Shown here: positions 1 through 1,192 of the stretch, piece after piece
Position numbering within the stretch: position 1 is the stretch's first letter
Layout: each line of letters opens with the position of its first letter
Program-made: the position numbers and the translations under genes
Notes under the pieces: generated by a model
Database searches by the model: none
The model's input: only the letters and a program-made list of their open reading frames with translations
Told to the model about the DNA's origin: nothing
Sequence record: OR846218.1
DNA: 1,192 nt
Direction: 5' to 3' (one strand)
Source of the DNA: a phage

Positions 1-77
1 AAATCTCCCGGAATAAGATTACACATCTTAGCTACAATATGAACTAACGTAGCATATGATGCAATATTAAATGGAAG
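1..77 (-). CDS. td: thymidylate synthase, exon 2 (5' portion only; CDS continues past window start)
   Basis: Minus-strand codons from 77 downward read CTT CCA TTT AAT ATT GCA TCA TAT GCT ACG TTA GTT CAT ATT GTA GCT AAG ATG TGT AAT CTT ATT CCG GGA GAT = LPFNIASYATLVHIVAKMCNLIPGD. This matches the conserved thymidylate synthase segment (E. coli ThyA ...LGLPFNIASYALLVHMMAQ...). The frame is continuous with exon 1 once 78..1093 is removed. No ORF-track entry because the fragment is short and lacks a start. Confidence 0.86.
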
Positions 78-224
78 CACTATGTTCAGATAAGGTCGTT
101 AATCTTACCCCGGAATTATATCCAGCTGCATGTCACCATGCAGATCAGACTATATCTCCAACTTGTTAAAGCAAGTTGTCTATCGTTTCGAGTCACTTGA
201 CCCTACTCCCCAAAGGGATAGTCG
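78..224 (-). ncRNA. 3' ribozyme segment of the group I intron (P6 3' strands, P7-P9 region, terminal G)
   Basis: Minus strand CGACTATCCCTTTGGGGAGTAGGGTCAAGTGACTCGAAACGATAGACAACTTGCTTTAACAAGTTGGAGATATAGTCTGATCTGCATGGTGACATGCAGCTGGATATAATTCCGGGGTAAGATTAACGACCTTATCTGAACATAGTG. It contains a 7-bp hairpin CAACTTG/CAAGTTG (159..178) and a 7-bp hairpin CTGCATG/CATGCAG with a GUGA tetraloop (126..143). It ends in G at position 78 immediately before exon 2. Confidence 0.8.
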
Positions 225-962
225 TTAGGCATTTATGTAGAACCAATTCCATTTATCAGATTTTACACGATAAGTAACTAATCCAGACGAAATTTTAAAA
301 TGTCTAGCTGCATCTGCTGCACAATCAAAAATAACCCCATCACATGAAATCTTTTTAATATTACTAGGCTTTTTACCTTTCATCTTTTCTGATATTTTAG
401 ATTTAGTTATGTCTGAATGCTTATGATTAAAGAATGAATTATTTTCACCTGAACGATTTCTGCATTTACTACAAGTATAAGCAGAAGTTTGTATGCGAAC
501 ACCGCACTTACAAAACTTATGGGTTTCTGGATTCCAACGCCCGTTTTTACTTCCGGGTTTACTGTAAAGAGCTTTCCGACCATCAGGTCCAAGTTTAAGC
601 ATCTTAGCTTTAACAGTTTCAGAACGTTTCTTAATAATTTCTTCTTTTAATGGATGCGTAGAACATGTATCACCAAACGTTGCATCAGCAATATTGTATC
701 CATTAATTTTAGAATTAAGCTCTTTAATCCAAAAATTTTCTCGTTCAATAATCAAATCTTTCTCATATGGAATTTCTTCCAAAATAGAACATTCAAACAC
801 ATTACCATGTTTGTTAAAAGACCTCTGAAGCTTTATAGAAGAATGGCATCCTTTTTCTAAATCTTTAAAATGCCTCTTCCATCTCTTTTCAAAATCTTTA
901 GCACTTCCTACATATACTTTATTGTTTAAAGTATTTTTAATCTGATAAATTCCGCTTTTCAT
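225..962 (-). CDS. I-TevI: Intron-encoded GIY-YIG homing endonuclease I-TevI (245 aa)
   Basis: ORF-track entry 225..962 (-), ATG at 962..960, TAA at 227..225. Protein starts MKSGIYQIKNTLNNKVYVGS (GIY at 4-6, YVG at 17-19) and has R27, E75 and N90 in the expected catalytic positions. A Cys4 zinc finger lies at C151/C153/C164/C167 (FCKCGVRIQTSAYTCSKC), followed by a C-terminal DNA-binding region. As far as I can recall, this matches phage T4 I-TevI over its full length. A GAGG Shine-Dalgarno lies 5 nt upstream of the ATG. Confidence 0.97.
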   Translation of the reverse strand: MKSGIYQIKNTLNNKVYVGSAKDFEKRWKRHFKDLEKGCHSSIKLQRSFNKHGNVFECSILEEIPYEKDLIIERENFWIKELNSKINGYNIADATFGDTCSTHPLKEEIIKKRSETVKAKMLKLGPDGRKALYSKPGSKNGRWNPETHKFCKCGVRIQTSAYTCSKCRNRSGENNSFFNHKHSDITKSKISEKMKGKKPSNIKKISCDGVIFDCAADAARHFKISSGLVTYRVKSDKWNWFYINA

Positions 963-990
963 AAATACCTCTTTAAATATAGAAGTATTT
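963..990 (-). promoter_or_regulatory. I-TevI translation-initiation region: Shine-Dalgarno (GAGG, 971..968) sequestered in a 10-bp hairpin
   Basis: Minus strand 990..963 is AAATACTTCT ATATTTAA AGAGGTATTT, followed by ATG. The two arms pair over 10 bp (9 Watson-Crick plus one U.G) around an 8-nt loop, burying the SD. This agrees with the published model in which I-TevI is translated only from late transcripts that start inside the intron and lack the 5' arm. Confidence 0.55.
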
Positions 991-1000
991 ATTAAAGGGC
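984..1000 (-). promoter_or_regulatory. T4 late-promoter-like element (AATAAATA, 993..986) and overlapping I-TevI operator-like sequence
   Basis: Minus strand 1000..984 is GCCCTTTAATAAATACT. AATAAATA is one mismatch from the T4 late promoter consensus TATAAATA. A start about 6-8 nt downstream would fall inside the hairpin, removing its 5' arm. The same stretch (CCCTTTAATA) resembles the exon-2 I-TevI binding sequence (CCATTTAATA, 74..65), as expected for the published autorepressor operator. Confidence 0.4.
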
Positions 1001-1093
1001 AGTCCTACAATTTAGCACGGGATTGTCTACTAGAGAGGTTCCCCGTTTAGATAGATTACAAGTATAAGTCACCTTATACTCAGGCCTCAATTA

Positions 1094-1192
1094 ACCCAAG
1101 AAAACATCTACTGATCGTTGATACCACTGCAAATCCAAATAGCCATTACGCACATTAAACTGATAGAACATATGACAAGGCGGTAATGCCAT
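1094..1192 (-). CDS. td: thymidylate synthase, exon 1 (3' portion only; CDS continues past window end)
   Basis: Minus strand from 1192 reads 33 in-frame codons: [37 protein letters not shown] holds the thymidylate synthase active-site cysteine (codon TGT at 1177..1175), and the segment aligns with E. coli ThyA DMALAPCHAFFQFYV...LYQRSCDVFLG. The exon ends at a codon boundary at 1094 and is followed immediately by intron TAA. Confidence 0.9.

Follow-up and report, generated by a model that had tools for sequence, protein, structure and literature searches.

The closest described system is the td intron of phage T4, in which a sequence resembling the homing site overlaps the late promoter of the homing endonuclease I-TevI. 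This T4 operator is bound by I-TevI at homing-site affinity, mediates the down-regulation of a late-promoter lacZ fusion during infection, and is cleaved ~100-fold less, having no CXXXG motif at the right distance (PMC2988022, citing Edgell et al., 2004). The primary binding region of I-TevI is 20 bp long and centred on the intron insertion site, the cleavage motif is 5'-CXXXG-3', and the two cuts fall 23 and 25 nt upstream of where the intron inserts (PMC2988022). Expression in T4 is additionally controlled by the combination of a late promoter and a hairpin at the ribosome-binding site (Gott et al., 1988, cited in PMC2988022): a 12-bp hairpin covers the Shine-Dalgarno sequence and the AUG, and late transcripts escape it because its 5' arm reaches into the late promoter. 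The 5' end of the late transcript has been mapped in T4 by primer extension (cited in PMC2988022).

Other systems differ in their components. The putative operators of I-TevII and I-TevIII (PMC2988022, Figure 4B) involve different endonucleases, different targets (nrdD and nrdB) and different promoters, and they lack experimental demonstration. I-BmoI, from the thyA intron of Bacillus mojavensis, has a DNA-binding domain that is unrelated in sequence, and an operator goes unmentioned in the part of that source considered here (PMC2853131).

The DNA analysed here is a stretch of 1,192 nt from sequence record OR846218.1, referred to below as the window. The feature flagged in its first-pass annotation is the published T4 operator, so the call was correct and the element was already known. 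We put the probability that 1010..986 on the minus strand serves as both I-TevI operator and late promoter in the td intron at roughly 0.85; the present analysis supplies the anatomy, the hairpin, the lack of a cleavage motif and the sequence identity with the T4 element, and binding, repression and reduced cleavage are taken from published work on T4. The window shares with the T4 td operator (Edgell et al., 2004; PMC2988022) the DNA-binding domain, 91 nt of sequence around the site, the overlap with the promoter and the lack of CNNNG at the cleavage distance, and it shares with the T4 hairpin the 12 bp that cover the Shine-Dalgarno sequence and the start codon.

A T4-type td intron encoding I-TevI

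Read on the minus strand, the window comprises the end of exon 1, the intron with I-TevI and the start of exon 2 of a T4-type thymidylate synthase gene (td). Alignment to T4 td places the 3' part of exon 1 (its last 99 nt) at 1094..1192, the 5' splice site between 1094 and 1093, a group I intron of 1016 nt, with both splice sites located, at 78..1093, and the first 77 nt of exon 2 at 1..77. The exon-2 half of the I-TevI primary binding region, CTTCCATTTAATAT, occupies 77..64. The joined exons translate in frame across the splice junction, with |LPFNIASYA following it. The Rfam model RF00028 matched the window intron in its 3' half with 42.5 bits, which is below the gathering score of 50 bits because the 738-nt ORF splits the intron fold; the intron of PD112, a natural ORF-less relative, reached 73.8 bits. 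A further Rfam match, to snoR66 at 422..496, was rejected as a chance hit (E = 0.32, 20 bits against a threshold of 43 bits, inside the ORF and antisense).

The ORF at 225..962 on the minus strand encodes 245 aa plus a stop and was identified through Pfam and through identity to PDB chains. Its product contains the Pfam domains GIY-YIG, I-TevI_ZnF and I-TevI_DNA-bd; residues 130–245 show 100% identity to the DNA-binding domain solved by crystallography (PDB: 1I3J, 1T2T), and residues 1–97 equal the catalytic domain except for engineered active-site substitutions. PDB entry 1T2T is attributed to the autorepressor paper of Edgell (2004), and its protein chain is identical to that of the window. 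Judged by these identities, the product of the ORF is I-TevI.

Several Tequatrovirus genomes are 99.9% identical to the window, and T4 td is ~99% identical, with a handful of positions that differ from the T4 reference. Across the site itself the agreement is complete: 160 phage records share all 91 nt at 1040..950 with the window, T4T, other T4 isolates, T6, RB5 and RB55 being examples. The T4 reference (AF158101/NC_000866) is different in one respect, an extra T at window 1002/1003 (GGACTTGCCC) that gives an intron of 1017 nt, whereas the window and 160 other records, four other T4 isolates among them, have GGACTGCCC and an intron of 1016 nt. At full length, the extra T was present in only the two reference records, AF158101 and NC_000866.

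Several smaller sequence differences were recorded elsewhere in the window. In exon 1, at 1115, the window has CAACGA and T4 has CAACGC, directly 3' of the cleavage motif. Exon 2 differs at 75, 72 and 60 (CTtCCaTTTAATATTGCa in the window, CTaCCgTTTAATATTGCg in T4), and these three synonymous differences lie inside the I-TevI binding region. At window 80 (a G on the minus strand), which is position -3 of the intron from the 3' splice site, the intron ends in ACATAGTG instead of the ACATAATG seen in all other sampled phages; Escherichia phage a48 gave the only exact match to a 71-nt stretch covering this position, which is thus a rare polymorphism beside the 3' splice site. Finally, several phages (e.g. 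JK45) carry the 31 nt at 1040..1010, CTCTCTAGTAGACAATCCCGTGCTAAATTGT, with 100% identity within their nrdD (I-TevII) intron, which shows that different T4-type introns have core sequence in common.

Operator, putative late promoter and hairpin on shared bases

The starting observation of the first-pass annotation was that CCCTTTAATA in the intron (999..990) shares nine of ten bases with CCATTTAATA in exon 2 (74..65). Strings and coordinates are exact on the minus strand, and 999..990 is the single other site in the window, on either strand, that matches the exon-2 10-mer with at most one mismatch. The accompanying idea that the intron mimics the exon-2 contact region holds for this 10-mer but is too narrow, as the whole 20-bp region, with its exon 1 and exon 2 parts, is mimicked at ~1010..989; in the same way, the proposed interval of 984..1000 falls on the site but covers only its right-hand two thirds, the site running upstream to ~1010. 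To make this comparison, the homing site was rebuilt by joining the exons, and its 20-bp primary binding region (-8..+12) served as the query. The segment 1010..991 matched it at 14 of 20 positions (15 of 22 for 1010..989), the top score in the intron on either strand; these ungapped identities are slightly off the quoted 15/20. The operator TTGTAGGACTGCCCTTTAATAA (989..1010, minus strand) mimics the homing-site primary binding region TCTTGGGTCTTCCATTTAATAT (-8..+14), and its function is taken from PMC2988022. Within the window alone, this resemblance is not significant: shuffled introns scored as well somewhere in 246 of 2000 cases with the 20-mer and in 71 of 500 with the 22-mer, i.e. in 12–14%.

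The operator and the homing site part ways at the cleavage motif. In the homing site, the CNNNG motif is CAACG at 1116..1120 on the minus strand, corresponding to -27..-23 from the intron insertion site. With operator and homing site both anchored on TTTAAT, the equivalent of -27..-23 upstream of the operator (1029..1025) holds no CNNNG and reads TAGAC. The closest CNNNG upstream of the operator is CCGTG (1016..1020, minus strand), which lies at -18..-14 and is thus 9 bp nearer than normal cleavage requires; the sole further CNNNG in the vicinity is CGGGG at -43. The minus-strand scan for CNNNG that had been suggested alongside the original call accordingly returned no motif at the cleavage distance, in agreement with the published reason for poor cleavage. 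The extra T of the T4 reference moves CCGTG by 1 bp, to -19..-15 compared with -18..-14 in the window, and this explains the numbering used in PMC2988022 (-15..-19). Taken with the I-TevI protein and the 91-nt identity to 160 records, the absence of CNNNG at the right distance upholds the earlier view that the site fits the published autorepression by I-TevI.

T4 late promoters carry TATAAATA some 6–8 nt ahead of the start and have no -35 element. A putative -10-type element of this kind, AATAAATA (986..993, minus strand), was called from its motif, its position and the literature. It had been described as near the T4 late promoter consensus, which is accurate in so far as seven of its eight bases agree with TATAAATA, although it is not a full consensus. 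AATAAATA (993..986) lies partly within the operator at 1010..989 and 23 nt ahead of the ATG at 962. In the AT-rich window, matches to TATAAATA with at most one mismatch are not enriched (4 found, 4.72 expected). The identical 8-mer is annotated as “promoter” in the record of phage Lutter, and a perfect TATAAATA occurs at the homologous position in the distant homologs Aes508 and phiP4-3.

The same bases also take part in RNA structure. A 12-bp RNA hairpin spans 961..992 on the minus strand, with its 5' arm at 992..981, its loop at 980..973 and its 3' arm at 972..961, the latter covering the Shine-Dalgarno sequence GAGG (971..968) and the AU of the start codon. The hairpin has a dG of -12.6 kcal/mol (z = -5.25) and is absent from an RNA that starts at 984. 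The 12 pairs persist without exception in nine lineages, two of them by compensatory changes in both partners, and the variants in TuIa and other phages retain the pairing. At the opposite end, the Rfam structural alignment of the ORF-less PD112 intron identifies TTGTAGG (1004..1010, minus strand) as the 5' strand of the intron helix P6a, which overlaps the left edge of the operator. Four functions therefore overlap within 1010..981, and only the middle, ~CTGCCCTT, is free of constraint besides the operator; the constraints from P6a on the left edge and from promoter and hairpin on the right part could explain conservation there.

The mechanism that we consider best supported is the published one. 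In it, the T4 late transcription machinery would start, late in infection, at the promoter with AATAAATA (993..986). The start of transcription is predicted near 980, inside the 5' arm of the hairpin, and because of this position late transcripts would form no hairpin and their ribosome-binding site would be exposed, whereas the longer early and middle td transcripts would fold the hairpin and stay untranslated. I-TevI made from late transcripts would then bind TTGTAGGACTGCCCTTTAATAA (1010..989) through its C-terminal DNA-binding domain, the operator imitating the 20-bp region that is recognised around the exon junction of intronless td. As the operator overlaps the promoter, this binding would block further late transcription and so amount to autorepression. 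The linker and zinc finger would hold the catalytic domain at a fixed distance, and since TAGAC rather than CNNNG lies at -27..-23, the intron would not be cut efficiently. We count phage G28 in favour of this mechanism, as its truncated ORF goes together with a 1-nt deletion in the promoter.

The site and its target in other lineages

The comparative set consisted of the annotated phage collection, and a scan of IMG/VR with the start sequence of I-TevI gave four loci. In IMGVR_UViG_3300047476_000075, the first 20 nt of the I-TevI ORF (5714..5733) stand behind wholly unrelated upstream sequence, which points to an I-TevI-like gene in another setting. With most intron copies >99% identical, simple conservation is a test of little power. 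TTTAATAAATAC does not vary among the td introns that contain the ORF (Tequatrovirus, Gelderlandvirus, a Klebsiella phage and a Pseudomonas phage), but the five bases upstream of it do (TGCCC, TACCC, TACCA, CGCCC and AAGCA); the operator-specific middle, TGCCC in the window, is the most variable part of the site. No co-variation of operator and exon 2 was found within genomes, where exon 2 wobbles (TTTAAT to TTCAAC) and the TTTAAT of the operator is invariant. This is as expected, because the target of the enzyme is the intronless allele of other phages.

Comparison between lineages gave a different picture. For the window, PspYZU05, Aes508 and phiP4-3, pairing each site with its own target yields the highest total of all 24 permutations; the td-intron endonucleases of the latter three phages are ~47–67% identical to I-TevI. 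Target and site share a change of CC to AA in phiP4-3 and of T to A in PspYZU05, and have a matching C in Aes508. The site ranks first as a match to its own td target in HMGUkp2 (17/22, equalled in 1 of 500 shuffles), Aes508 (16/22, 8 of 500) and Melville, and is not the top match in PspYZU05, phiP4-3 and CGG4-1. On these alignments, changes in the promoter-overlapping site seem to follow those in the td target of its own lineage, including in lineages whose intron lies 21 nt further upstream, and the support that this co-variation lends is modest, being post hoc and drawn from few lineages with shared ancestry. That autorepression through a target mimic is ancestral and actively maintained across the whole lineage of intron-encoded I-TevI, and not a peculiarity of T4, is therefore offered tentatively, as a reading to which we give somewhat less than an even chance.

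The td intron of the Aeromonas phage Aes508 (at ~1250 and 2300) and of the Proteus phage phiP4-3 is located 21 nt upstream of the T4 site (...QR|SVD...), in a position that adjoins the I-TevI cut position in T4 td, and the whole presumed binding region is therefore intact in exon 2. This placement is similar to that of I-BmoI, whose insertion site is near its cleavage site.

Three other accounts of the site have to be weighed against this evidence. The first-mentioned statistics, with an equal score in 12–14% of shuffles and a promoter motif at chance frequency, would suit a by-product, in which an AT-rich late promoter, a hairpin arm and a P6a strand come to resemble the homing site by chance and I-TevI is inactive here, and so would the overlapping RNA-structure constraints on the site. 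We consider this extremely unlikely: the published binding, repression and co-crystal data were obtained on the identical sequence, which makes pure coincidence improbable, and the top match in the intron falls exactly on the promoter, co-varies across lineages with the td target, and is significant in HMGUkp2 and Aes508. The site might instead be the relic of a pseudo-homing site in an ancestral ORF-less intron, into which the endonuclease cassette was inserted and which has been kept by descent and not for regulation; such an origin was reportedly proposed by Loizos et al. in 1994 for another T4 intron, sunY/nrdD. The location of the site, in loop L6a where the ORF insertion has its 5' boundary, fits this idea, as do natural ORF-less derivatives that break at or beside the site. 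However, the entire mimic lies on one side of the ORF and is not split around it, and the ORF is downstream of the binding site, whereas the I-TevI cut falls ~25 bp upstream of it. The site also shifts with the td target in diverged lineages, which suggests continuing selection. Persistence by descent in place of regulation is thus very unlikely, while a relic origin and an operator function are not exclusive.

The remaining account accepts that binding is real and assigns it little role in fitness: the late promoter and the hairpin at the ribosome-binding site would dominate, and the operator would be a side effect of a tolerant DNA-binding domain. Replacing the operator in T4 with a middle promoter had no noticeable effect on viability, and the tight control of I-TevI has been linked mainly to splicing efficiency, through the hairpin (PMC2988022); the operator-specific bases, moreover, differ among phages. 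Against this, the lacZ fusion is repressed during infection (PMC2988022), and the similarity is kept across genera with endonucleases that are only ~47% identical to I-TevI, so that we regard a dispensable operator as unlikely. An operator combined with a late promoter remains our preferred reading, and it would make the locus a textbook case of a selfish endonuclease that reuses its sequence-tolerant DNA-binding domain as a repressor, where self-limited expression and the sparing of its own intron would help the element to persist in its host. The feature in this phage only confirms that it carries the standard T4-type element; mildly new are the hint of co-variation between operator and target across genera, the deletion derivatives that break at the site, and the 1-nt difference of the T4 reference sequence, which accounts for the offset in the published numbering.

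Free-standing homologs and degenerate introns

Free-standing homologs of I-TevI with 38–48% identity were found in Octan, Acj133, BRC001, Roth17 and Ac42. They are convergent with an uninterrupted td, and all but the Ac42 homolog overlap the 3' end of that gene. Near the promoters of Octan, BRC001 and Roth17 there is no convincing td-like site, the best candidates within 90 nt matching at 11–13 of 22 positions, and for this reason the operator is not claimed for free-standing homologs; Acj133 and Ac42 are without the td motif that was used as an anchor. A perfect TATAAATA lies upstream of the ORF in Octan, BRC001 and Roth17, and versions with one mismatch are present in Acj133 (CATAAATA) and Ac42 (AATAAATA).

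Degenerate td introns, finally, were seen in four phages. Most of the ORF is deleted in MLP2 and Elenatom, whose left junction falls within the late promoter (CCCTTTAATAA|TTTCATCAGG) and connects it to the 3' end of the ORF. PD112 has lost everything from GGACT through the last base of the ORF. In G28, the 1-nt deletion leaves the promoter as TTTAAT-AATAC, and the ORF is truncated to 168 nt.
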